NCBI GenBank assembly: GCA_964349465.1
Contig: CAYGGC010000001.1
Coordinates: forward strand, 124,375 to 188,374
Length of the DNA stretch: 64,000 nucleotides
Direction: 5' to 3'
Source of the DNA: an uncultured Gammaproteobacteria bacterium
GTDB taxonomy: Bacteria; Patescibacteriota; Patescibacteriia; SBBC01; CAIJZX01
Below the pieces are notes generated by a model. The model saw nothing but the letters and a program-made list of their open reading frames with translations. It made no database searches and had not been told where the DNA came from. Shown piece after piece: positions 1 through 57,276 of the stretch (position 1 is its first letter; every line of letters starts with the position of its first letter). Made by a program: the position numbers and the translations under genes.

Positions 1-2705
1 ATTGTCCAACCTGCCAGGGCGAGGGTTTTCTTATTCAGCAACATGGCGCATCACGTCGTTGTCCAACCTGCCAAGGTGTTGGCCTGACGACCTGGTGGTC
101 GGGAGCCTGGTGGACGTGGCGTCATCCGCTGACCGATTTTTCTATCGCTGAACGCCGGATGGAAAAAAGCATTCGGGTGGTGTTGTCAGCCGCGTGTCTC
201 GCTGTGTTTGGGCTCGGCCTGTGGTTTGGCGGGCGTGAGCTCGCCCCCGCGTTCGACCGTCAGGAAATTCTTTTTACTCTGCTGTCGCGCAGTTGGCCGA
301 TGACGATGTGGTGGTTTGGCTGGTTGGCGGTATTATTTTTCATTTTTCGTTTGATTCGTGCCAGGACCGCTTTTCCAAGCATACCTCGCGGTGCGCAAAC
401 GACACCAGCGGCAGACCTGAATTGGTCGAGCCCGGTTTCGTGGGGTGACGTGGCTGTTTGTTACACCGATGAGACGATGGCGGTCCTGGAACAGGCCTGG
501 CTGATGGCAAAATCCGCTCATGCCTCGACCCTGACACCTCTCCATGTTCTGGCTGCGGCGGTTACCAGGCCGAGCGTTGGAGCGATGTTTATCCGGTTGA
601 ATATTGCGCCGTCTGAATTGCGTGAGCGTGCTTTACGTACGACTGCTACGGCCACATCGTCTGATCCAGAGCTTGGTGCAGCGGTCCGAACGCTGTTGGT
701 CACGGCCTTTCATTTAGCGGCCCTTGATGGCCGTGAACGCGTGAGTCCACCGTATCTCGTGGCCGCGATGGCCGAGCTGGCGGATCCGGCGCGCGAATTA
801 CTCTACGATCTGAACGTTGATGAGCAAAAGTTTGCGCATGTGATTGAATGGATGAAGATTCAAGAAGACCTGCGTTTGAATTTGCGTCGTTATGCTAGTC
901 GTGCGGCCGCCAAACCGAAAGGGGCAATTGATCGCGCATATACCGCTTCGGCCACGCCCCTCTTGAATCGATTCAGTGTCGACCTGACTCGGTTAGCGCG
1001 TGACGGGCGTTTGCCGTACGTGATTGGTCGTGATGATCAACTCAAACACGCCTTCCGAATTGTTGAGAGTGGTCGCCGGAGCGTCCTCTTTGTTGGCGAA
1101 GCCGGAGTCGGATTAACGACCCTCCTTCACGCCGTCGCCGAACGCATGGTTACCGAAGATGTTCCGGAAACCCTGCAAGATAAACGCCTGGTGTTGCTGT
1201 CGGCTGCCTCCTTAGTAGCCGGCGCTGGGGCGGTCGGTCAGCTCGAAGAGCGAGTGGAGGCGATTTTGACTGAGATGGTGAATGCTGGAAATATTATTTT
1301 GGCAATTGAAGATCTTGACCAACTGGTCGGCGTGACGAGCACCGGGGGGAGCGGTCTTGATGCTGCTCATCTGATCGCCCAAGAGCTCAGTCAGCATAAC
1401 CTCATTGCGTTTGCGACTGTCACGTCGACGGCGTTTCGGCAAGTCATCGAACAAGCTGGAATTGTAAACTCCTTCGAAAAAGTCGATGTCCCAGAAATGT
1501 CGGCCGATGAATCAATCGTTGCGATTGAGTCGCGGATTGGATCCTTGGAGTACAAATACAAAATCATTTTCTCGTATGACGCGATTGCGCAAGCCGTCGC
1601 GCTCTCGAATCGCTATCTCCACGAAAAAACTTTACCAGGCAAAGCAATTGAGCTGATGGAAGAAGCGGCCGTCGCGGTGAAACGAGATCGCGGCGTTAAT
1701 GCACTCGTGTCGGGTGAAGATATTGCGAAGATTGTGACTGAGCAGACGAAGATTACCGTCACGGCTATGACCGGCGACGAGCAACAAAAACTTTTGCATT
1801 TAGAAGATGAGCTTCATCGTCGCGTGGTTGGACAAGATGAGGCGGTTAAGGCTGTCGCGAACGCGTTACGTCGGGCGAGAGCTGAGTTACGTGATACCAA
1901 GCGACCAATTGCCAACCTGTTATTCCTTGGTCCGACCGGGGTGGGAAAAACAGAATTAGCGAAAACCGTTGCCGCAAGTTATTTTGGCTCGGAAGAAGCG
2001 ATGATTCGCCTGGATATGTCGGAATATCAGGACGTCTCGAGCATCAATCGACTCCTCGGCGCACCGGCCGGGTATGCGGGGGCTCAGGCCGGTGGATACC
2101 TGACCGACGCGGTTCGACATAACCCGTTTAGCATTGTCTTGCTTGATGAATTAGAAAAGGCCCATCCGGATATTTTAAATCTGTTCCTGCAGGTGATGGA
2201 CGATGGTCGGTTAACCGACAATCTTGGACGGACTGTCGACTTTACGAATGTCATTCTTATAGCGACCTCGAATGCTGGTACGCAACACATTCAACAGCGC
2301 CTCACTGAGCAAGTCCCACTAACGACGATCAAGCAAGAGCTAGTGAGCGATGTACTACTGAAGTGGTACCGGCCGGAATTCTTAAACCGGTTTGACGCAA
2401 TTGTGCTCTTTACACCATTAAACCTTCAAGAAATTGAAACGATTGTCGGGTTGATGGTGAAGGGGATTGCTGACCGTTTAGCGGCGAAAGGCGTAACTCT
2501 CCAAGCTTCCCCGGCGGCGATTGCTGAATTAGCTCGAACCGGTTTTGATCCGTTGTATGGAGCTCGACCACTTCGCCGTGCGGTCCAAGAACATGTCGAT
2601 AATGCGCTGGCGCAATTTATGTTGCAAGGAAAACTCAATCGACGTGACGTTGCTATTCTTGAGCCGGGTGGCGCTATTCGGGTTGAGACTGCCACAAAGG
2701 TATAA
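1..2705 (+). CDS. ClpC/ClpB-like two-domain AAA+ chaperone ATPase, 5'-partial (ORF-track ATG at 159). N-terminal TM helices. The upstream in-frame stretch encodes DnaJ-type CxxCxGxG zinc-finger repeats.
   Basis: The 848-aa ORF has Clp_N-like repeats and two P-loops (GEAGVGLTT and GPTGVGKTE). The frame of the 159 ATG is stop-free back to base 3 and there reads CPTCQGEGF...CPTCQGVGL, so the CDS probably continues upstream of the window. Hydrophobic segments lie at aa 8-70 of the ORF. Confidence 0.8.
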   Translation, partial: CPTCQGEGFLIQQHGASRRCPTCQGVGLTTWWSGAWWTWRHPLTDFSIAERRMEKSIRVVLSAACLAVFGLGLWFGGRELAPAFDRQEILFTLLSRSWPMTMWWFGWLAVLFFIFRLIRARTAFPSIPRGAQTTPAADLNWSSPVSWGDVAVCYTDETMAVLEQAWLMAKSAHASTLTPLHVLAAAVTRPSVGAMFIRLNIAPSELRERALRTTATATSSDPELGAAVRTLLVTAFHLAALDGRERVSPPYLVAAMAELADPARELLYDLNVDEQKFAHVIEWMKIQEDLRLNLRRYASRAAAKPKGAIDRAYTASATPLLNRFSVDLTRLARDGRLPYVIGRDDQLKHAFRIVESGRRSVLFVGEAGVGLTTLLHAVAERMVTEDVPETLQDKRLVLLSAASLVAGAGAVGQLEERVEAILTEMVNAGNIILAIEDLDQLVGVTSTGGSGLDAAHLIAQELSQHNLIAFATVTSTAFRQVIEQAGIVNSFEKVDVPEMSADESIVAIESRIGSLEYKYKIIFSYDAIAQAVALSNRYLHEKTLPGKAIELMEEAAVAVKRDRGVNALVSGEDIAKIVTEQTKITVTAMTGDEQQKLLHLEDELHRRVVGQDEAVKAVANALRRARAELRDTKRPIANLLFLGPTGVGKTELAKTVAASYFGSEEAMIRLDMSEYQDVSSINRLLGAPAGYAGAQAGGYLTDAVRHNPFSIVLLDELEKAHPDILNLFLQVMDDGRLTDNLGRTVDFTNVILIATSNAGTQHIQQRLTEQVPLTTIKQELVSDVLLKWYRPEFLNRFDAIVLFTPLNLQEIETIVGLMVKGIADRLAAKGVTLQASPAAIAELARTGFDPLYGARPLRRAVQEHVDNALAQFMLQGKLNRRDVAILEPGGAIRVETATKV

Positions 2706-3410: not shown

Positions 3411-3439
3411 TTGAAGTTTTGCTCTGAAGTTGGTAGAAT
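3411..3439 (+). promoter_or_regulatory. Sigma70-like promoter of glyS: TTGAAG-17-TAGAAT, with the -10 hexamer ending 6 nt before the ATG (leaderless candidate).
   Basis: TTGAAG at 3411-3416 and TAGAAT at 3434-3439; ATG at 3446. Confidence 0.45.
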
Positions 3440-13192: not shown

Positions 13193-13861
13193 GTGGGTAA
13201 GCTCTATATTGTCGGAACGCCAATCGGTAATTTGGAAGATCTCACGTTTCGCGCGAAACGAATATTGTCGTCGGTCAGCGTCGTTGCTTGCGAAGATACT
13301 CGCGTGACGCGGAAACTGTTATCGCACTACGAAATTGAGGTGGCGACGATTGCTGTCCACCATCACTCCACCCCAACCGAGCTCGATCGAGTTCTTGATC
13401 GGACAACTGAGGCAGACGTGGCGGTTGTGACCGACGCTGGCATGCCTGGTGTCTCGGACCCGGGCGGAAAACTCGTGGCGCGGGCCCTCGAACGAGGGAT
13501 TGCTGTCGAAACGGTACCTGGTCCAAGCGCACTCACGACGGCGACATCTCTAGCGGGCTGGGCGACGGATCAGTTTTTGTTTCTCGGATTCCTACCGCAC
13601 AAGAAAGGCCGCGAGACGCTCTTCAAGCGAATTGCCGAAACGGAAGAGTCGGTGATACTCTATGAATCGCCACATCGGATTCTTAAGACCCTTGAATCCT
13701 TATTGAGAATGATTCCCAATAGGCCGATCGCGGTTGCGCGTGAGCTGACGAAGATTCACGAGTCGGTGGTGCGTGGTACACCGGACATGGTCCTGAAACA
13801 TTTTACTGATCACCCCGATCAGGTCCGCGGTGAAATTGTTTTGATGATAGCCCCGTTATGA
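13193..13861 (+). CDS. rsmI: 16S rRNA (cytidine1402-2'-O)-methyltransferase RsmI.
   Basis: LYIVGTPIGNLEDLTFRA...ACEDTR N-terminal signature of tetrapyrrole-methylase-like RsmI. Confidence 0.85.
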   Translation: MGKLYIVGTPIGNLEDLTFRAKRILSSVSVVACEDTRVTRKLLSHYEIEVATIAVHHHSTPTELDRVLDRTTEADVAVVTDAGMPGVSDPGGKLVARALERGIAVETVPGPSALTTATSLAGWATDQFLFLGFLPHKKGRETLFKRIAETEESVILYESPHRILKTLESLLRMIPNRPIAVARELTKIHESVVRGTPDMVLKHFTDHPDQVRGEIVLMIAPL

Positions 13862-21716: not shown

Positions 21717-21977
21717 ATGTATTACGTCTACGTTCTACGAAGTATCAGCAGCGGTCGTCTCTACACAGGCTATACTGAAAATCTACGGAAACGCTTGAGT
21801 GAACATGTTGAAAAGAAATCTAAGTACACCAAACATCGAGGTCCATACGAACTTATTTATTACGAAGCGAGTAAACACCGATACGACGCAATGGCACGAG
21901 AGATTTATTTGAAAAGTGGAATGGGTAAACGATATCTTCGCAATCGAATGAAAAGGTTTTTCTCAAGCGTTTCCTAA
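21717..21977 (+). CDS. GIY-YIG nuclease superfamily protein (UPF0213/YhbQ-like) inserted between atpZ and atpB.
   Basis: YVYVLRSISSGRLYTGYTENLRKRLSEH, a GIY-YIG core. The gene is AT-rich relative to its surroundings. Confidence 0.8.
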   Translation: MYYVYVLRSISSGRLYTGYTENLRKRLSEHVEKKSKYTKHRGPYELIYYEASKHRYDAMAREIYLKSGMGKRYLRNRMKRFFSSVS

Positions 21978-28685: not shown

Positions 28686-28768
28686 ACCCTCACACCAAAC
28701 AACGGGGTTGCTTGGTGTGAGGGTCAAGGGTCAGCAAAAAGAGCCGGTCTTGACGAATCCGGCTTTTT
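28686..28768 (+). terminator. Tandem hairpin terminators after the atp operon. The second hairpin contains the -35 of the next promoter.
   Basis: CCCTCACACCAA...TTGGTGTGAGGG (12-bp stem), then AAAAAGAGCCGG...CCGGCTTTTT. Confidence 0.6.
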
Positions 28769-28834
28769 GGGCTAGGGTCAAATTTCAGTTAGCTGCACTT
28801 TCTCATGATCGAAAACCCCCAATGACTGGAGGTC

Positions 28835-29434
28835 GTGATGATTCACGGAGTCACTGAAACTGACTATCAGCGGGTCATGGAGCTGCGGAACGCGCCGCCG
28901 AACAGTGACGGACGTCGTCCGCTTGATGAGCTGAAACCGGCTGGTTTCAATGAAGATGGCATGATCATTACCGTCAGCTGTGGTGACGGCGATCGGATCG
29001 AGGACATCCTCGGTCACAAGCGCGTCACGCACTGCTGCAAGGTCCACGCCATCTGCCAGAACGGCGGCGCTATGCTGATGTCGGAGGCGTGCCCGGCAAA
29101 CTCGGAAGAGTGGCCGTGGGGTCGTTTGCTTCGTCGCTCGGTGCTCGACGCCTGTGAACTCAAGGGGACGAACCTCGTCGCGCTCGGGTCACACTACCCG
29201 TGCGGTCTGGCGAAGAAGCTCGGCATCTCGCTCGACGATGTCATTCGCCTCACGGTTGACGCCAAGCGGACGCTCAAGGCGATGCAGCCGAGCTTGGAAG
29301 TCTACTGCTTCTTCCACGTCGCGTACTACGACGGTCGGGCCCGGACCTATACCATCGATCACAAGTACACTCCCTTCTCAGAGGGAGGAATCCTTCCGCC
29401 CGCACGCGTTGCAGGAACTGGAGGAGGCTGGTAG
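28835..29434 (+). CDS. Hypothetical Cys/His-rich protein, paralog of the next gene. Possible beta-carbonic-anhydrase-like zinc fold.
   Basis: Own promoter TTGACG-17-TAGGGT and a GGAGG RBS. SCGDGDR...GSHYPCG has the same Cys...HxxCG spacing as the next gene. Confidence 0.35.
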   Translation: MMIHGVTETDYQRVMELRNAPPNSDGRRPLDELKPAGFNEDGMIITVSCGDGDRIEDILGHKRVTHCCKVHAICQNGGAMLMSEACPANSEEWPWGRLLRRSVLDACELKGTNLVALGSHYPCGLAKKLGISLDDVIRLTVDAKRTLKAMQPSLEVYCFFHVAYYDGRARTYTIDHKYTPFSEGGILPPARVAGTGGGW

Positions 29435-29467
29435 AATCACACCAGCCTTTTTTCTTATTCTCGATTC

Positions 29468-29888
29468 TATGTCCCACACCGCCAAAGCCCTCCTCCTGCA
29501 TTGCATTGATTATCGCTTCGTTCACGAAACGGTTCACTTTATGAAGTCGCAGGGTTTGATTGACCAATACGATGATGTTGGCGCGGCCGGAGCGGCGAAA
29601 AATCTGGTTGATCCGTATGACGCGAGTGACGTGGAATTCATTTTCCGACAAATTGAAATCGCGAAAAAACTCCATGATATTCAGGAAGTGGTGATTGTGA
29701 ACCACCGCGATTGTGGCGCCTACGGAAAAGGGGTTTTCGCTACTGAAGCTGAGGAGACCGAGCGCCATACCCACGACTTGGCCAAAGCAAAAATGATGAT
29801 TGAGCATCGGGTTGACGGTGTAAAGGTTCGAACCTATTTGGCGTGGTTACAAGAACCGCACGGCGTCGACTTCGATCCGATTGGGTAA
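29468..29888 (+). CDS. Beta-class carbonic-anhydrase-like protein of 140 aa. The ORF-track 5' extension from 29154 is judged spurious.
   Basis: HCIDYRF (CxDxR) and VVIVNHRDCGAYG (HxxCG) motifs. The upstream 105 codons are Arg/Ser-rich alternate-frame junk overlapping the previous gene. Confidence 0.4.
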
Positions 29889-29899
29889 TCAAAAAAACC

Positions 29900-29928
29900 T
29901 TGACACTACCCTCGGAACAGGGTAGGAC
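29900..29928 (+). promoter_or_regulatory. Promoter TTGACA-17-TAGGAC with an upstream A-tract, for the FabH-like gene.
   Basis: AAAAAAACCTTGACA...TAGGAC, with a GGAGGTG RBS 5 nt before the ATG at 29983. Confidence 0.45.
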
Positions 29929-29982
29929 TTGGGGTAGAGAAATTACCGTTCCTTCCAACCCATACAACTCTGGAGGTGGCCT

Positions 29983-31056
29983 ATGTTGACTGACGTGCGT
30001 TCGCTGACCGACGGTCAGCCCGGCGCCATTCTCGGCGTTGGACATACGGAGCTAGGCGAGCAGTATCGTTTCGACAACCGACGCTTCATTCTGAATCCTG
30101 AGAAGGTTCCGGGGGCGCTGTCACCGCTTGGTCGCAGACAACTTTTCATCGACCTGTCACTTGGTGCAACGCAATCCGAAGAGGAGCTCGTTGCTCTGGC
30201 TGATCAGAAGTTTATCGCGACGACGGGTATTCGGTCGCGGTATATTTTTGACGGCCCGGTGGCCGAGCTCGCGGCTATGGCTGGTCGCCAGGCGCTACGC
30301 GCTGCGCAGGTTGAAGCGTCCGAGATTGACGCGGTCATCGTCGGATCAAATACAGGTTCGGGCTATCCAAGCACAGCCGATCGAGTCAAAGTCGCGCTCG
30401 GGATTCCGTCGACGGCGCTGAGCTTCGATGTTCAGGAGGCCTGCCCGGTTGGCGCGATCGCGGTCGAGCTAGCCTGGAAACTGATTCGTGGACGTTTCCA
30501 TCGACGCGTGCTCGTCATCGGCGCGGAGAAGGCCACGACCTTGGCTTCGCCGGACGATTACAAGGGCGCTAATCTCTTCGGGGATGCGGCCTTCGCCTTT
30601 GTCCTCGGCGCGAGTACGGCGGACGACTTCATCTTCTTCGAATCGGGTTCAGATCCGTACGACGACAAGGCGGAGTACATTACCCGAACGAAGGATGGTT
30701 TTTCTCAGAACGGTCGGGCGGTGCACAAGTATGTCGGAACCGTCATCCCTGACTTGCTCGGACGAACCTTCGAACGGTTACGGCTTGACCCGGCGACGGT
30801 TCATCACTTCTTCCCGCATCAGCCGTCGGCCAAGACCCTCGACTTCCTTGTCGACAACCTCAAAGGGCGCTGGCCGACCTTTAACCCGGTGATCCACCGG
30901 AACGTCGAAGAGATGGGCAACACTTCTGGGGCCTGCACCGGCTGGATGATCTCACGGGCCAAGGCGCAGGGGCAGCTCAAGCCGGGCGAGTTCTGCCTCG
31001 TTGCGACCTTCGGGTCGGGGATGAGTTGGGGCCTGTATGGGTTCATTGTTCGGTAA
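29983..31056 (+). CDS. 3-oxoacyl-ACP synthase III (FabH)-like / KAS III family condensing enzyme.
   Basis: Cys-His-Asn triad contexts: VQEACPVGA, HHFFPHQPSAKTL and NVEEMGNTSGA. Atypical N-terminal insertion. Confidence 0.75.
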   Translation: MLTDVRSLTDGQPGAILGVGHTELGEQYRFDNRRFILNPEKVPGALSPLGRRQLFIDLSLGATQSEEELVALADQKFIATTGIRSRYIFDGPVAELAAMAGRQALRAAQVEASEIDAVIVGSNTGSGYPSTADRVKVALGIPSTALSFDVQEACPVGAIAVELAWKLIRGRFHRRVLVIGAEKATTLASPDDYKGANLFGDAAFAFVLGASTADDFIFFESGSDPYDDKAEYITRTKDGFSQNGRAVHKYVGTVIPDLLGRTFERLRLDPATVHHFFPHQPSAKTLDFLVDNLKGRWPTFNPVIHRNVEEMGNTSGACTGWMISRAKAQGQLKPGEFCLVATFGSGMSWGLYGFIVR

Positions 31057-31057
31057 C

Positions 31058-31086
31058 ACACCTGTCCGCAAGGAGAGGTGTTTTTC
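31058..31086 (+). terminator. Rho-independent terminator.
   Basis: ACACCTgtccgcaaggagAGGTGT followed by TTTTTC. Confidence 0.6.
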
Positions 31087-31109
31087 TTATTGAGAATGAT
31101 TCTCAATAA
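31087..31109. promoter_or_regulatory. Perfect 23-bp palindrome TTATTGAGAATgATTCTCAATAA upstream of the helicase-nuclease gene. Candidate operator.
   Basis: 11-bp arms around a central G. A 22-nt near-identical copy lies inside rsmI at 13700-13721. Confidence 0.4.
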
Positions 31110-31127
31110 CACCAGAAGAGTGGTTTC

Positions 31128-34100
31128 ATGGTAAAATCTCTGCCTATGCCCGGCGAAATTCCATCCCAGGTCAACCCCGAACAGCAAGCTGCTATTCACC
31201 ATGGCCAAGGCCCATTGTTAATTGTGGCGGGAGCAGGGACCGGAAAAACGACCGTCGTGACCGAGCGGATTGCCCATCTGATCATGGACCAGCAGGTCCC
31301 GTCGGATAATATCCTCGCCCTGACGTTTACCGACAAGGCCGCTGGAGAAATGCAGGATCGGGTTGAACGGATTTTACCGTTCGGGTATGTCGATTTATGG
31401 GTGATGACGTTCCATGGATTTGCCCAGCGACTTCTCAAAGATCACGCGCTCGACATCGGCCTGTCGAATGATTTTAAGCTTTTATCACAAACAGATCAGT
31501 GGCTACTCATTCGCGAACACCTCGATGAGTTCGACCTCGACCACTATCGGCCGCTCGGCAATCCGACCAAGTTTATTACGGCCCTGGTCAAGCATTTCTC
31601 TCGTCTGAAGGACGAAGATATTACGCCGGAGGAATACGTGAAATATGCAAAAGGGTTGGCGAAGGGCAAGGCCAAGAAATCCGATGAAGAGAAAGCCGAA
31701 GCTGAACGGACGATGGAACTTGCGAAGGCGTATTCGACGTATAACCAACTTTTACTCGACACCAATGCGCTTGATTTCGGTGATCTCATTGTCTATACCC
31801 TCCGCCTGCTTCGCGAACGCCCGGCGATTCTCAAGCACTACCAAAAACAATTTCAATATGTCCTCGTTGACGAATTCCAAGACACGAACTGGGCGCAATT
31901 TGAATTGATTAAGCGCTTGTCGGCGCCACGGAATAATTTGACCGTCGTCGGCGACGATGACCAGTCGATCTATAAATTCCGCGGCGCCTCGGTTTCGAAT
32001 ATTCTCGAATTCAAAAAAGATTTTCCTGACGCGGACGTCATTGTGCTAACGAAGAACTATCGAACCCGCCAATCCATTCTTGATCTTTCTTATGATTTTA
32101 TCCAGCACAATAATCCGGACCGTCTCGAAGCAAAAAAGGAAGCACTGGGTGGATTGCAGATTGTGAAGAAGCTTATGTCCCAGCGCGAGGGGAAAGGTGA
32201 GATCGGCTTAATCCACGTTGAGACGCAAGAGTCGGAAGCGCGAAGCGTTGCTGAAAAAATTGATGAGCTGAAAAAATCTAATCCGGAGTTGTCCTGGGAC
32301 GCGTTCTGCGTCCTCGTTCGGGCAAACGACCATGCCGAAATTTTCATTAACGAGTTTGAGCGGCGTGGTTGGCCGTATGTTTTTTTAGCCGCGCGCGGAT
32401 TATTCACCAAGCCGCTAGTGATTGATCTCCTGGCCTATTTGCGTTTGCTGGATAATTATCACGAAAGCGCCGCGCTCTATCGTGTTCTCGCGATGCCGAT
32501 CTGGGACATTGATCATGCGGATATTGTTGAAATCGCGTATCAGGCGAAGAAAAAAACCCAGTCGCTCTACGAAGCGATCAACGACGCTCCAGCCGGAATT
32601 TCTGAAGCGAGTCGGAAAGGGATTACCAAACTCCTGGGCCACATCGCGGCTCACTCACAATTGGCACTGGCCCAGCCGGTCGGCGAGGTGCTCTTACACT
32701 TTCTCAATGATTCTGGGTATTTGCAAGACATGACCCGGGAAGAAACCCTCCAGTCACAACAGCAATCAGCCATTCTCCGCCAACTGTTTAAGGTGATTGA
32801 AGCCTTCCAGCACGGGAATCCCGCGGTTGGTTCGAGTCACGCGACGGTAAAAAGTTTTTTGAAATATATTGAACATGTCACGGAGTCCGGTGATGCCGGA
32901 GCGCTTGAGCGAGATATGGAAGCTGGACCGGAGACGATGAAGATCATGACGGTCCACGCCGCCAAGGGCTTGGAGTTTCCGTACGTCTTTATAGGTAACG
33001 TCGTGGAACAGCGTTTTCCAGGCCAAGACCGCAAGGATCCGATTCCGGTCCCAGACGCCCTCATTCGAGAAATTTTGCCGCAAGGCGACGCCCATCTGCA
33101 GGAAGAGCGGCGACTGATGTATGTCGCGATTACTCGCGCCCGCGACGGTGTATTCTTTACCTTAGCCGAAGATTACGGCGGGACGCGGCGCAAGAAGCCC
33201 TCACCGTTTATCTATGAACTGCAACTGCTCGCGCCGCCGGTCAAAGCTGAAAAGAAACCGCCCCTGCCAGAGCGTTTGTTTACTCCCACGCCGACGCAGG
33301 TGAAGGAGTCGGCCGCCTATCAGCTCCGTGAAAAACACTATAGTTTCACGAAACTGTCGACCTATAATGATTGCCCGTGGAAATACCGCTATGCCTTCGT
33401 CCTGCAAGTACCGAAGCGGGGAAGTCATGTCCTCTCCTATGGCTCATCCATCCATAAAACGTTACAAAACTTTTTTTCACTCTGGAAACAGCGCCAGCAT
33501 GATGGTATGACCGAAAAAAATCCAGTCAATCTCGAAGAACTACTGACGATGTACCGCCAATCCTTCATCGAAGAATGGTACCAATCAAAAAAAATCCGGA
33601 ATGAGTATTACGCGAAAGGGGAGGCGGCGTTGAAAACATGGTATACGAAAACAGTTCAGGCTCCGCCCGACGTCCTGCGGCTTGAACAAGTCTTTAATTT
33701 GAAAGTCGACGAGTTTGTCGTGAATGGCGCGATCGATCGCATTGATCAAATTGGCGTTGATGAAAAAACGAAAAAACCACAAGTGAAAATTGTCGATTAC
33801 AAAACCGGGAAGGTCAAAGAGAAATTTGAAAAGGATGATAAATATCAGCTTTTGATTTATACATTAGCAGTGAAGGATCCAAATATTCTTGACGGCGAAG
33901 TCACGGAGTTGGAATATTATTTCGTCGATGAAAATGCATCGCGGACAATGGTGCCAACCGAAAAAGACGCGACTGCGGCGCTTGATTGGGTCCGGGCCAC
34001 GGTGAAAGGGATTCAATCCGGTGATTTCCGGGCGACGCCGAACGAGATGATTTGCAAATTCTGCGACTATAAGGAAATTTGCGAGTTTCGAGCAATATAA
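31128..34100 (+). CDS. UvrD/PcrA-family superfamily-1 helicase fused to a C-terminal Cas4/AddB-like PD-(D/E)xK nuclease with a Cys cluster.
   Basis: AGAGTGKTT Walker A and UvrD motifs. C-terminal VDYKTGK, QLLIYTL and CKFCDYKEIC, plus an upstream CPW Cys (4Cys Fe-S nuclease pattern). Confidence 0.85.
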   Translation: MVKSLPMPGEIPSQVNPEQQAAIHHGQGPLLIVAGAGTGKTTVVTERIAHLIMDQQVPSDNILALTFTDKAAGEMQDRVERILPFGYVDLWVMTFHGFAQRLLKDHALDIGLSNDFKLLSQTDQWLLIREHLDEFDLDHYRPLGNPTKFITALVKHFSRLKDEDITPEEYVKYAKGLAKGKAKKSDEEKAEAERTMELAKAYSTYNQLLLDTNALDFGDLIVYTLRLLRERPAILKHYQKQFQYVLVDEFQDTNWAQFELIKRLSAPRNNLTVVGDDDQSIYKFRGASVSNILEFKKDFPDADVIVLTKNYRTRQSILDLSYDFIQHNNPDRLEAKKEALGGLQIVKKLMSQREGKGEIGLIHVETQESEARSVAEKIDELKKSNPELSWDAFCVLVRANDHAEIFINEFERRGWPYVFLAARGLFTKPLVIDLLAYLRLLDNYHESAALYRVLAMPIWDIDHADIVEIAYQAKKKTQSLYEAINDAPAGISEASRKGITKLLGHIAAHSQLALAQPVGEVLLHFLNDSGYLQDMTREETLQSQQQSAILRQLFKVIEAFQHGNPAVGSSHATVKSFLKYIEHVTESGDAGALERDMEAGPETMKIMTVHAAKGLEFPYVFIGNVVEQRFPGQDRKDPIPVPDALIREILPQGDAHLQEERRLMYVAITRARDGVFFTLAEDYGGTRRKKPSPFIYELQLLAPPVKAEKKPPLPERLFTPTPTQVKESAAYQLREKHYSFTKLSTYNDCPWKYRYAFVLQVPKRGSHVLSYGSSIHKTLQNFFSLWKQRQHDGMTEKNPVNLEELLTMYRQSFIEEWYQSKKIRNEYYAKGEAALKTWYTKTVQAPPDVLRLEQVFNLKVDEFVVNGAIDRIDQIGVDEKTKKPQVKIVDYKTGKVKEKFEKDDKYQLLIYTLAVKDPNILDGEVTELEYYFVDENASRTMVPTEKDATAALDWVRATVKGIQSGDFRATPNEMICKFCDYKEICEFRAI

Positions 34101-56172: not shown

Positions 56173-57276
56173 CTAGGGGACGAGGAGATCGAGATGAATT
56201 TTACTTGGGTCGTCCACCGCCGCTGATCGCCACCACGGACTAATGTCGACCGTCGCTGTGGCCACATGTTCGTTAGCTAACAGTTTTTTGATGATGGCTT
56301 CACGACTGAGGCCGGCAAATTGACTGGCGGCGAGTTGTGATGCATCCGCCCGGATTTGGCTCAGCCCCTCAACCGTGACCACGACTGTCGCGCTCGTGGA
56401 GGTAGGTTGTGATTCGATGGCGAGTACAGGTGTTTCGATTGAGGCAATTTCTTGGCCATCGGTTAAGGTGCTGGCGAGTCGCTGACGAATGAGCTTGTCG
56501 AGCTCTTGTTGGTCATAGGTAATCGTGATCCCTTTCATAGTGACGGTGACTGCGTAGGTACTGGCCGCTTCTTCAGCTGCCGGAACAGTGGCGACTGATA
56601 CTGGGACGAGAGACTTAAAGACACCCGCCGACCCGGTCCCGAATTTTTCGCGGACTGCTTCTTCGCCAGCGTTGCTCGCGGCGGTGAGATTTTCTAAGGA
56701 GAGTGACCCCGATTGGCCAACCAGTCCACCGGAAAATGAGGCCGTGCTTTCACCAAAAATCAGAGCCTGGTTTGCTGGTCGGAGAGCCACAATCGTGAAT
56801 CGACCTGGTGGAACATTGCCATCCTCACCGAGCGGATCAGCGACGGCGGTCGCGGTGACTTGGCCTTTCGCCGGAACATCAAGTCGAGTCGTGGTCCGAA
56901 CAATGACGCCGTTGGCGTGTTCTAGTCGAGTCCCGGCCGCGAGCGGTTGGGGCGCGCTCGACGTGTTTTTGATAATGACCGTTCCGGAGGCGTGAGCTGG
57001 TACCTCGGCGCCGCTGACGCTGGGCGCGGCTGTGACCGTCGCGGACACATCCTCCGTGGTCACCGTTCCAATCAGTCCAAGGTCACCCTCGGCCTCTGGG
57101 CCAACCGTTACCGAAAACGTCGTAGTGAGCGAGGAGAGGGCGGGCGTGACCCGAATGACGGTGTTGCCACTGCTAGCGTAGACGACGCCGGCGATGACGA
57201 TTATTGCTAAACTACAAAATACGATGAGGACCGGGCGATAGAAGGCTTGGATGTGTGATTGGCGAAGGGTGGGCAT
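56173..57276 (-). CDS. Hypothetical N-terminally anchored extracytoplasmic protein, Thr/Ser/Ala/Val-rich, downstream of dnaE.
   Basis: TM segment at aa 15-35. Repetitive beta-rich composition. 4 nt from the dnaE stop. Confidence 0.5.
   Translation of the reverse strand: MPTLRQSHIQAFYRPVLIVFCSLAIIVIAGVVYASSGNTVIRVTPALSSLTTTFSVTVGPEAEGDLGLIGTVTTEDVSATVTAAPSVSGAEVPAHASGTVIIKNTSSAPQPLAAGTRLEHANGVIVRTTTRLDVPAKGQVTATAVADPLGEDGNVPPGRFTIVALRPANQALIFGESTASFSGGLVGQSGSLSLENLTAASNAGEEAVREKFGTGSAGVFKSLVPVSVATVPAAEEAASTYAVTVTMKGITITYDQQELDKLIRQRLASTLTDGQEIASIETPVLAIESQPTSTSATVVVTVEGLSQIRADASQLAASQFAGLSREAIIKKLLANEHVATATVDISPWWRSAAVDDPSKIHLDLLVP

Follow-up and report, generated by a model that had tools for sequence, protein, structure and literature searches.

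Genomic context and domain architecture

The window (the whole 64-kb stretch of DNA that was analysed) comes from a genome of the Kerfeldbacteria, a lineage of the candidate phyla radiation (CPR). It contains a gene for a large helicase–nuclease, with atpD/atpC of the atp operon, a Pro_CA_2 gene and a FabH-like gene upstream and pheS/pheT downstream. The features in front of the gene, together with its domains and a second site elsewhere in the window, are listed in Table 1.

Table 1. Coordinates of the features at the helicase–nuclease locus and of the second site in rsmI
Feature	Position	Strand	Basis
Near-consensus copy of the palindrome, TTATTGAGAATGATTCCCAATAG, inside rsmI	13700..13722	.	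Sequence match and PWM
FabH-like (KAS III-like) gene	29983..31056	+	Profile matches and locus comparison
Intrinsic terminator of the upstream FabH-like gene (hairpin ACACCT..AGGTGT and T-run)	31058..31086	+	RNA fold
Proposed Fur-family operator, TTATTGAGAAT-G-ATTCTCAATAA	31087..31109	.	Sequence and motif-class context
7-1-7 core, TGAGAAT-G-ATTCTCA	31091..31105	.	Read off the sequence
Extended −10 element, TGGTAAAAT	31129..31137	+	Conserved in orthologous loci as TGGTA[A/G]AAT
Gene for SF1 UvrD/PcrA-type helicase with C-terminal Cas4/AddB-type PD-(D/E)XK nuclease, four Cys	31146..34100	+	Profile matches
Helicase core (UvrD-helicase, aa 16-300; UvrD_C, aa 305-681)	31173..33170	+	Pfam
PDDEXK_1 / Cas4-like nuclease domain	33339..34085	+	Pfam and invariant residues

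The initial annotation had described UvrD/PcrA helicase motifs and a C-terminal nuclease of the Cas4/AddB type with four cysteines, and the HMM check bore out both descriptions. Pfam matches were found to UvrD-helicase (PF00580, 6.5e-83), UvrD_C (PF13361, 1.3e-49), PDDEXK_1 (PF12705, 1.4e-34, aa 738-986) and Cas_Cas4 (PF01930, 26.7 bits, above the 22.7 cut-off). In the nuclease domain we identified C749, D870, D890-x-K892, Q907xxxY911 and C976-x2-C979-x5-C985. The D, DxK and QxxxY residues as well as C749, C976, C979 and C985 do not vary in any of the 120 homologues compared, and the Walker A Lys and the DE pair of the helicase are kept in 119–120 of them. The protein probably carries an Fe-S cluster, as judged from these cysteines. 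Searching PDB sequences with only the nuclease domain gave no matches.

Assignment as a CRISPR-associated Cas4 or as a subunit of AddAB or RecBCD was not supported, as all NCBIfam equivalog scores were under the cut-offs, those of the AddA, AddB and RecB models far under: TIGR00372 cas4 (40.6 versus 65), recB (163 versus 696), addA_Gpos (216 versus 708) and addB_Gpos (50 versus 904). With AddB and Cas4 the protein shares the RecB-type nuclease and the C-Xn-C-X2-C-X5-C ‘iron staple’ arrangement, along with SF1 helicase motifs; unlike AddB, AddA or RecB, it is a single polypeptide of ∼985 aa whose helicase appears from its motifs to be active. The scored homologues number over 8000, and UvrD plus nuclease is a common arrangement in Patescibacteria. 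A clade of UvrD-Cas4-like fusions within pfam12705 has already been described (Hudaiberdiev et al. 2017, PMC5704561); in its members, too, an SF1 UvrD-like helicase is followed at the C-terminus by a Cas4-like PD-(D/E)XK domain, and four cysteines are present. By its profile matches the window protein is thus confirmed as a UvrD and PD-(D/E)XK fusion of known type. Genes of this clade are reported to lie frequently in defence neighbourhoods (Type III R-M or Dcm/Vsr), whereas the window gene lies among housekeeping genes; such a neighbourhood is not strictly defining for the clade, since stand-alone genes are noted as well (PMC5704561).

Terminator, promoter and start codon

The palindrome had been placed between a terminator and a ribosome binding site. 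The terminator is real: the hairpin has a fold z of −4.1 and the same layout is present in the related locus L142; a simple terminator pattern scan missed it. The ribosome binding site is probably wrong: no Shine-Dalgarno site precedes the helicase gene.

A scan of positions 30900-31300 for canonical −35/−10 promoters found nothing. The extended −10 element TGGTAAAAT is situated 20 nt past the palindrome and 8 nt before the ATG at 31146, and the same type of element stands directly before two other genes of the window. A leaderless or near-leaderless helicase mRNA is predicted from this promoter, with its 5' end at about 31144-31146. The start at 31128, which gave the listed ORF its 990 aa, is probably wrong: this ATG overlaps the TG of the conserved extended −10 element, and in the related locus L020 a stop codon comes next. 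Orthologues begin at MPG. We therefore place the probable start at ATG 31146 (MPGEIP...), from which the product has 984 aa. In practical terms, the analysis thereby revises both the start codon and the promoter assigned to this gene.

The palindrome and its copy in rsmI

The sequence check agreed with the initial annotation that TTATTGAGAATGATTCTCAATAA is a perfect palindrome of 23 bp. Its stem is A/U-rich and is followed in the window by CACCAG, without a U-run. The box does not overlap the −10 element; as it ends 18–20 nt before the extended −10, it covers about −58 to −36 of the predicted transcription start.

The claim of a near-identical copy in rsmI, unlikely to be there by chance, also stood. 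The copy matches at 21 of 22 positions over the 22-mer, with two mismatches over the 23 nt. In 100 dinucleotide-shuffled versions of the window we found no match to the 23-mer at ≤3 mismatches versus four strand-hits in the actual sequence. By our estimates, the chance of any 21/22 pair within 64 kb on both strands is ∼0.016, and that of a second match with ≤2 mismatches to the 23-mer is ∼4e-6. A PWM built from Kerfeldbacteria sites scored 36.6 and 31.5 at the two window sites, with the rest of the window and 20 shuffles at ≤14. A density of two sites per 64 kb, with nothing else above noise, is regulon-like.

The rsmI copy falls within an rsmI-like ORF (13193-13861), where it is read as codons S-L-L-R-M-I-P-N-R in a variable linker of RsmI; the overlapping metG start follows ∼136 nt downstream. 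Among the relatives compared, only the closest one (L148) keeps the copy, including its five synonymous positions, with third-position identity of the gene at only 59%. The L145 orthologue of rsmI, 90% identical, is without the site, and no promoter-like element was found beside the copy. Compared with 79 RsmI homologues, the site shows no indel, which rules out a mobile insertion in rsmI. The initial annotation had offered either a shared regulator or a small mobile or repeat element as the source of the copy. With no indel and only the 23-bp core in common, the latter found no support; the sequence of the copy is best read as a site for the shared regulator, and it may be a second, recently evolved near-consensus site.

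The box in related Kerfeldbacteria

The motif was found at further loci of related genomes, beyond the two in the window; GCA_040960315.1 (contig JBFOMO010000028.1) is one genome with the box. In L142, L020 and L017 the helicase gene again has the box upstream; in L143 the box is found at a Ddl gene promoter, and behind the Ddl gene come a gene for a C39-like peptidase and then the helicase gene. The distance from box to TGGTAAAAT is 18–20 nt in four loci. In L017 the box lies between two convergent terminators, with 262 nt separating it from the helicase start. The copies are unusually alike (≤2 mismatches in most), and similarity between them is confined to the 23-bp core; the two L017 copies additionally share T-run/A-run flanks (TTTTTT/GAAAAAC).

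Positions 10 and 14 of the box co-vary symmetrically and by genome: the window, L148 and L017 have A·T; the four sites of L020, L143 (two sites) and L002 all have C·G. Such a symmetric switch per genome would be expected were a single dimeric protein to read every site.

The box is absent upstream of the helicase orthologues of L001, L003/L004, L021, L144 and more distant Patescibacteria; in the latter, the best 7-1-7 matches were no better than those in shuffles. An operator conserved across all orthologues is thereby ruled out, and the box, missing from many of them, is therefore recent and labile. Elsewhere, a Fur-type box upstream of a UvrD-like gene was seen in one ambiguous case only (L034, Mucilaginibacter), where it lies between the UvrD-like gene and a CcmE-domain gene.

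The genes adjoining the Kerfeldbacteria sites encode the helicase–nuclease, Ddl, a FabH-like protein, a large surface protein and RsmI, with no classic iron gene among them. Neither the 64-kb window nor ∼190 kb of DNA from related Kerfeldbacteria yielded a Fur-family gene with a Fur HMM of our own, and a homologue search with a Fur of Peribacteria returned no match labelled as Kerfeldbacteria.

A Fur-type motif in many phyla

The core of the palindrome was compared with the Fur consensus in its 7-1-7 reading, TGATAAT-N-ATTATCA (Baichoo & Helmann 2002, reviewed in PMC11353095). Both are 7-1-7 inverted repeats whose central base is free, and both lie near a promoter, which in the window is a predicted one; 12 of the 14 arm positions are identical to the consensus given in PMC11353095, and only one symmetric position differs. 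This is arm position 4, where G replaces T (TGAGAAT); one sub-lineage has TGAGACT. The E. coli 19-bp form of the Fur box is GATAATGATAATCATTATC.

The 7-1-7 architecture is common to Fur, PerR and Zur boxes, the PerR and Zur boxes of B. subtilis being TTATAATNATTATAA and TCGTAATNATTACGA, and the palindrome shares with the latter two both the architecture and the proposed protein family. In B. subtilis the discriminating ends are TGA...TCA for the Fur type and not TTA...TAA. The window arms have TGA...TCA, unlike PerR and Zur boxes; on these positions the palindrome is of Fur type rather than of PerR or Zur type.

We scanned the degenerate pattern TATTGANAATNATTCNNAATA against ∼185,000 genomes and obtained at least 120 loci in many phyla, none of the matches listed being from Kerfeldbacteria. 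Among the 120 matches listed, 83 (69%) are intergenic, the free NN is TC in 52 (∼6% expected), the central base is random, and 13 have a Fur-family ORF at ≤8 kb from the box. In two loci of CPR Peribacteria (L063 and L087) the fur start is 5 nt from the box. A scan of 20 genes adjoining the motif revealed two FUR genes, one ferritin, five TonB receptor/Plug genes, one FeoB, one NEAT, three iron-type SBPs, one ZnuA-type SBP and one ABM/IsdG-like gene (on a Patescibacteria contig). This iron-regulon context belongs to other phyla and two CPR lineages, not to Kerfeldbacteria itself.

An SOS/LexA operator was considered because the downstream gene encodes a repair-type enzyme. It was rejected: the 20 genes scanned by motif in other phyla are iron genes, with no recA, lexA or uvr among them. 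The palindrome resembles no LexA motif known to us. The link to DNA damage implied in the initial annotation is not upheld, as the motif class precedes iron-homeostasis genes in other phyla and not SOS genes.

A candidate Fur-family operator

The suggestion that the palindrome is a regulator's operator gained support from the comparisons above, and its sequence points more precisely to a Fur-family (7-1-7) box. We consider it reasonably probable that a dimeric Fur-family metalloregulator uses the palindrome as its operator, which is located directly upstream of the extended −10, leaderless promoter predicted for the helicase–nuclease gene. The −35-less promoter at TGGTAAAAT would drive a leaderless mRNA of the UvrD/Cas4-like enzyme. 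A metal-loaded regulator would bind the 7-1-7 core, possibly as two dimers over the 23 bp, and the otherwise constitutive promoter would become responsive to the iron or redox state. Repression, by occlusion of the region upstream of −10, is likelier than activation because orthologous promoters work without any box. We infer the Fur homologue in this genome, its binding at the palindrome and the sign of regulation. The element is of an ordinary kind, at a somewhat unusual position.

Regulation has hardly been studied in CPR/Patescibacteria, whose reduced genomes encode few transcription factors. If the Fur reading is true, it would provide a concrete Kerfeldbacteria cis-element, a Fur box that is close to perfect and keeps a fixed distance from an extended −10 leaderless promoter, and would suggest a coupling of an Fe-S-dependent DNA-end-processing enzyme to the iron or redox state. 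The per-genome switch from A·T to C·G would be a small natural case of co-evolution between an operator and its reader. On this reading, sites should be enriched in the 100 nt that precede gene starts or TGNTANAAT elements. General knowledge of Fur boxes and of UvrD-Cas4 fusions is unchanged.

Several observations count against the Fur reading. The palindrome is situated just upstream of the −35/−10 region of the extended −10 promoter and abuts the −35 region, whereas classic Fur repression involves a box overlapping −35/−10. No Fur gene was found in the DNA scanned, and the neighbour genes in Kerfeldbacteria, unlike those of classic Fur boxes, are not iron-acquisition genes. The box is also missing from several orthologues, lies 262 nt away in L017, and has near-identical copies.

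Alternative explanations

A PerR-type, peroxide-sensing paralogue of Fur could read the same 7-1-7 architecture; once oxidized, it would leave the box, and the helicase–nuclease would be induced after oxidative DNA damage. Physiologically, induction of a DNA-end-processing enzyme during oxidative stress is easier to understand than induction of an Fe-S enzyme when iron is scarce, and among metagenomic homologues of the CPR Fur some are automatically named ‘peroxide stress response regulator’ by JGI. We nevertheless hold this to be unlikely, given the TGA...TCA arms, the iron-uptake and iron-storage genes that the motif class precedes in other phyla, and the lack of catalase, Dps or AhpC-type genes beside the sites. 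That the palindrome works through a hairpin in RNA or DNA (for instance as terminator, processing site or stabiliser) and not as a protein-binding site is very improbable. A 10-bp stem closed by a 3-nt loop could form beside the FabH-like terminator, and the change from A·T to C·G preserves pairing, but several copies, including those in rsmI and at L017_9717, have A·C or T·C mismatches, the Rfam search gave no match, and in other phyla the motif occupies promoter regions of iron genes. The palindrome is probably little transcribed, because it lies past the terminator and ahead of the predicted transcription start. A terminator or riboswitch was rejected on the empty Rfam result, the weak AU-rich stem lacking a U-run and the absence of −35/−10 elements in 30900-31300, and an intrinsic terminator on the grounds that the true one is the separate hairpin upstream. 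We give little credence to the view that the rsmI copy resembles the palindrome by chance and that function is limited to the intergenic palindrome: the variable linker, the lack of a promoter-like element and the absence from L145 would fit it, but the shuffles, the ∼4e-6 estimate and the retention in L148 despite the low third-position identity speak against it.

What lies between the Pro_CA_2 gene and the helicase gene varies from genome to genome (FabH-like, Ddl, C39 peptidase, a 1462-aa surface protein or nothing), and boxes stand at the cargo boundaries; in L017 the two flank-sharing copies bracket the 5-kb surface-protein gene. The palindrome might then be a lineage-specific repeat or recombination site (REP/MITE-like, or a target of an integrase or Xer) bounding variable cassettes, with a Fur likeness that is coincidental or co-opted. 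Like REP and MITE elements it is a short palindrome with several near-identical copies, often right behind gene ends, and concerted evolution would give such copies and a variant common within a genome. Unlike them, it has a very low copy density (two copies only in 64 kb), a coding-region copy without an indel, a fixed spacing to the −10 element in four loci and the sequence of a Fur box. No target-site duplication was seen, most copies are dissimilar outside the 23 bp, and the cross-phylum Fur-regulon context accounts for the sequence without mobility. The geometry of dif and attC sites is unlike 11-1-11. On balance we regard a repeat or recombination site as quite unlikely. There is also a slim chance that the palindrome is both a Fur-type operator and a breakpoint for the swapping of cassettes in the stretch from the Pro_CA_2 gene to the helicase gene. 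Recombination in a streamlined CPR genome would in that case have its hotspot at a metalloregulator site or at a palindrome mimicking one, and the Fe-S helicase–nuclease would be under metal or redox control as well.

Palindromic box and its second copy

The perfect 23-mer palindrome ahead of the helicase gene (11-1-11 layout) and its copy within an rsmI-like ORF (Table) are real and no chance pair. As the initial annotation had it, the copy matches its 22-mer at 21 of 22 bases; dinucleotide-shuffled versions of the window gave no match to the 23-mer at ≤3 mismatches, and a PWM built from sites in related genomes scored the two sites at 36.6 and 31.5, against ≤14 in the rest of the window and the shuffles.

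Table. Positions of features in the window and in compared loci (L-numbers)
Feature	Locus	Position	Strand	Remark
Palindromic box	window	31087-31109		TTATTGAGAATGATTCTCAATAA
Second copy	window	13700-13722		TTATTGAGAATGATTCCCAATAG; codes for S-L-L-R-M-I-P-N-R
rsmI-like ORF	window	13193-13861		
rsmI/metG overlap	window	13858-13861		4 nt (ATGA)
Terminator of FabH-like gene	window	31058-31086		hairpin ACACCT...AGGTGT and T-run (RNA fold)
Extended −10	window	31129-31137	+	TGGTAAAAT, 8 nt before ATG 31146
Further TGGTA[A/G]AAT elements	window	3431-3439, 29429-29437		
GIY-YIG-like small ORF	window	21717-21977		just before atp genes
Baseplate_J match	window	56173-57276	−	adjoins dnaE
Hotspot	window	28700-31130		FabH-like gene (also in L142)
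Hotspot	L021	1000-2330		nothing between Pro_CA_2 and helicase genes
Hotspot	L144	5800-10000		FabH-like, Ddl, 168-aa gene
Hotspot	L143	2000-6470		three small ORFs, Ddl, C39-like peptidase
Hotspot	L017	3300-10000		1462-aa CarboxypepD_reg/TIG/FG-GAP surface protein, zf-HC2 mini-ORF
Hotspot	L020	9100-10000	−	211-aa ORF
Relic promoter	L143	6335-6465		
Relic promoter	L003/L004	~640-770		
bAvd/23S-rRNA-IVP gene	L017	2442-2795		between atpD and atpC
bAvd/23S-rRNA-IVP gene	L144	4781-5128		between atpD and atpC
Fur-type box region	L034	440-700		TTATTGATAATGATTCTAAATA
Box before ABM gene	L060	1245-1267		TTATTGAGAATCATTCTTAATAA, contig JBAYGJ010000074.1

Helicase-nuclease and its promoter

The Pfam HMMs identified the downstream ORF as a UvrD/PcrA-type SF1 helicase (PF00580, 6.5e-83; PF13361, 1.3e-49) with a C-terminal PD-(D/E)XK domain (PF12705, 1.4e-34) that also passed the Cas_Cas4 threshold. 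Invariant in 120 homologues (47–100% identity) were the helicase Walker A Lys and DE, the nuclease residues D870, D890-x-K892 and Q907xxxY911, and cysteines C749, C976, C979 and C985 (C-Xn-C-X2-C-X5-C). Both results uphold the combination of UvrD helicase, Cas4-like nuclease and four Cys read from the sequence initially. None of the curated equivalog cut-offs for PcrA, UvrD, Rep, AddA, AddB, RecB and Cas4 was reached. More than 8000 homologues were scored, the named ones being from Candidatus Kerfeldbacteria and other Patescibacteria, which assigns the window to a CPR bacterium. Because the UvrD-Cas4-like fusion has been described as a monophyletic clade of pfam12705 (PMC5704561), the protein is a member of a known, biochemically uncharacterised kind. 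Defence genes are a frequent reported context of such fusions, whereas the window gene has housekeeping neighbours (atpD/atpC upstream, pheS/pheT downstream).

All helicase orthologues begin MPG..., with a TGGTA[A/G]AAT extended −10 directly upstream of the ATG at a distance of 6–11 nt. The ATG at 31128, which opens the 990-aa ORF of the initial annotation (the same form as in the protein database, P0001), overlaps the TG of this element, and its counterpart in the relative L020 meets a stop after three codons; therefore, translation probably starts at ATG 31146 (984 aa), 18 nt away from that call. The ribosome-binding site noted initially was not recovered, as no Shine-Dalgarno site precedes the gene; a leaderless or near-leaderless mRNA is predicted. 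The terminator placed before the palindrome does fold as one.

Elements of the TGGTAGAAT type precede two other window genes as well. The extended −10 elements at three window positions lie 6–31 nt before starts without Shine-Dalgarno sites, which suggests that leaderless or very-short-leader mRNAs may be common in the source genome.

A Fur box across phyla

The palindrome core, TGAGAAT-G-ATTCTCA, is a 7-1-7 inverted repeat that deviates at one symmetric position from the Fur consensus TGATAAT-N-ATTATCA (7-1-7; reviewed in PMC11353095). A scan of bacteria and archaea, one genome per species, with the degenerate motif TATTGANAATNATTCNNAATA returned at least 120 loci in many phyla. In the 120 matches listed, the free NN was TC, restoring the palindrome, in 52 (∼6% expected), the central base was evenly distributed and 83 sites were intergenic. 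Pfam analysis of 20 genes starting within ∼100 nt of a listed site found two FUR, one ferritin, one FeoB, one NEAT, five TonB-dependent receptors or plug domains, three iron-type and one ZnuA-type periplasmic binding proteins, and one ABM (IsdG-like) gene on a Patescibacteria contig. A Fur HMM, built from five Fur-like neighbours of sites, detected a Fur-family ORF within 8 kb of the site in 13 of the 120 listed loci; in two of these, from CPR Peribacteria, fur begins 5 nt from the box. Judged by the palindrome bias, intergenic placement, iron-gene neighbours and nearby Fur ORFs, the sequence class is a genuine Fur box across phyla, the CPR among them. The ABM gene, 36 nt downstream of a box identical to the L017_4639 site, is the clearest putative iron-type target in a Patescibacteria genome among the matches listed.

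The sole further helicase-adjacent case among the 120 matches listed was in Mucilaginibacter roseus (L034), with a Fur-type box between divergent UvrD-like helicase and CcmE-domain genes.

Conservation in Kerfeldbacteria

The helicase gene is preceded by the box in relatives L142 (89% protein identity; right arm degraded, layout of FabH-like gene, terminator, box and promoter as in the window), L020 (87%) and L017 (86%; 262 nt from the gene, flanked by two convergent terminators). The L143 box lies 18 nt ahead of a TGGTAAAAT promoter driving Ddl, a C39-like peptidase and then the helicase gene. L017 and L143 have additional copies just 3′ of the Pro_CA_2 gene, and L002 has one 136 nt before a FabH-like gene. 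The copies have no more than the 23-bp core in common; the distance from box to extended −10 is 18–20 nt in the window and in L142, L020 and L143. At the symmetry-mate positions 10 and 14, the window, L148 and L017 have A·T, and the four sites in L020, L143 and L002 all have C·G; such a symmetric change, shared by all sites of a genome, would be expected of a dimeric trans-acting reader. No box precedes the orthologues in L001, L003/L004, L021 and L144, or the more distant Patescibacteria orthologues, whose best 7-1-7 matches were no better than shuffles. By this distribution the box is functional-looking, yet young and labile.

The copy in rsmI falls in a variable linker of RsmI. In L148, the closest relative (93% amino acid identity), the site is kept including synonymous positions, while third-position identity of the gene is 59%; in L145 (90%) it is absent. 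There is no promoter-like element beside it. A mobile insertion, as suggested initially, is ruled out since RsmI has no indel at the site versus 79 homologues. The other initial suggestion, a shared regulator, gives the best reading: a second site of recent origin, close to consensus, for the same putative regulator, the two sites being 21/22 identical because both approximate one strong consensus.

The rsmI–metG overlap is also present in L148, and the genes are 84 nt apart in L145; the intragenic box and the loss of the spacer occur in the same lineage.

Proposed regulation and alternatives

The box spans about −58 to −36, relative to the predicted start, of a promoter without a −35 hexamer; orthologous helicase promoters would work without any box. 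One or two metal-loaded Fur-family dimers may bind it and turn a constitutive promoter conditional. Of the repressor operator proposed initially, the Fur-box class sequence near a predicted promoter stands; repression would be more likely than activation. The Fur HMM found no Fur-family gene in the window or ∼190 kb of related DNA scanned, and no classic iron gene adjoins the Kerfeldbacteria sites. A peroxide-sensing paralogue of the Fur family, kept as a rival, would be physiologically more plausible as regulator of a repair enzyme; however, by the B. subtilis discrimination rules, the arms are of Fur type, not PerR or Zur type.

Cargo varying between the Pro_CA_2 and helicase genes, and two flank-sharing copies that bracket the 5-kb surface-protein gene in L017, suggest a repeat or recombination site, but the uninterrupted rsmI, low copy density and fixed promoter spacing speak against it. 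A hairpin or terminator is unlikely: the stem is AU-rich with no U-run after it and contains mismatches in several copies, the element probably is not transcribed, and an Rfam search gave no match. Under the favoured Fur-type operator, a known kind of element stands at a known kind of gene; new are their combination and the lineage, which offer an entry of modest interest into the regulation of CPR bacteria.

Variable neighbourhood

The atpC/Pro_CA_2-to-helicase stretch is a hotspot of gene-content change (Table). In L143 and L003/L004, the real gene is preceded by a relic copy of the helicase promoter with about the first 10 codons (ATGCCCGGTGTCAT...); a terminator-like hairpin and then a second promoter and start come after the relic. 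The arrangement resembles a scar left by recombinational replacement of the 5′ end. Besides the bAvd-family insertions, other relatives have NUDIX and HD genes inside the atp operon. The GIY-YIG-like ORF was identified by eye from its translation alone, and the Baseplate_J (phage baseplate) Pfam match was taken from annotation precomputed for the identical contig L152.
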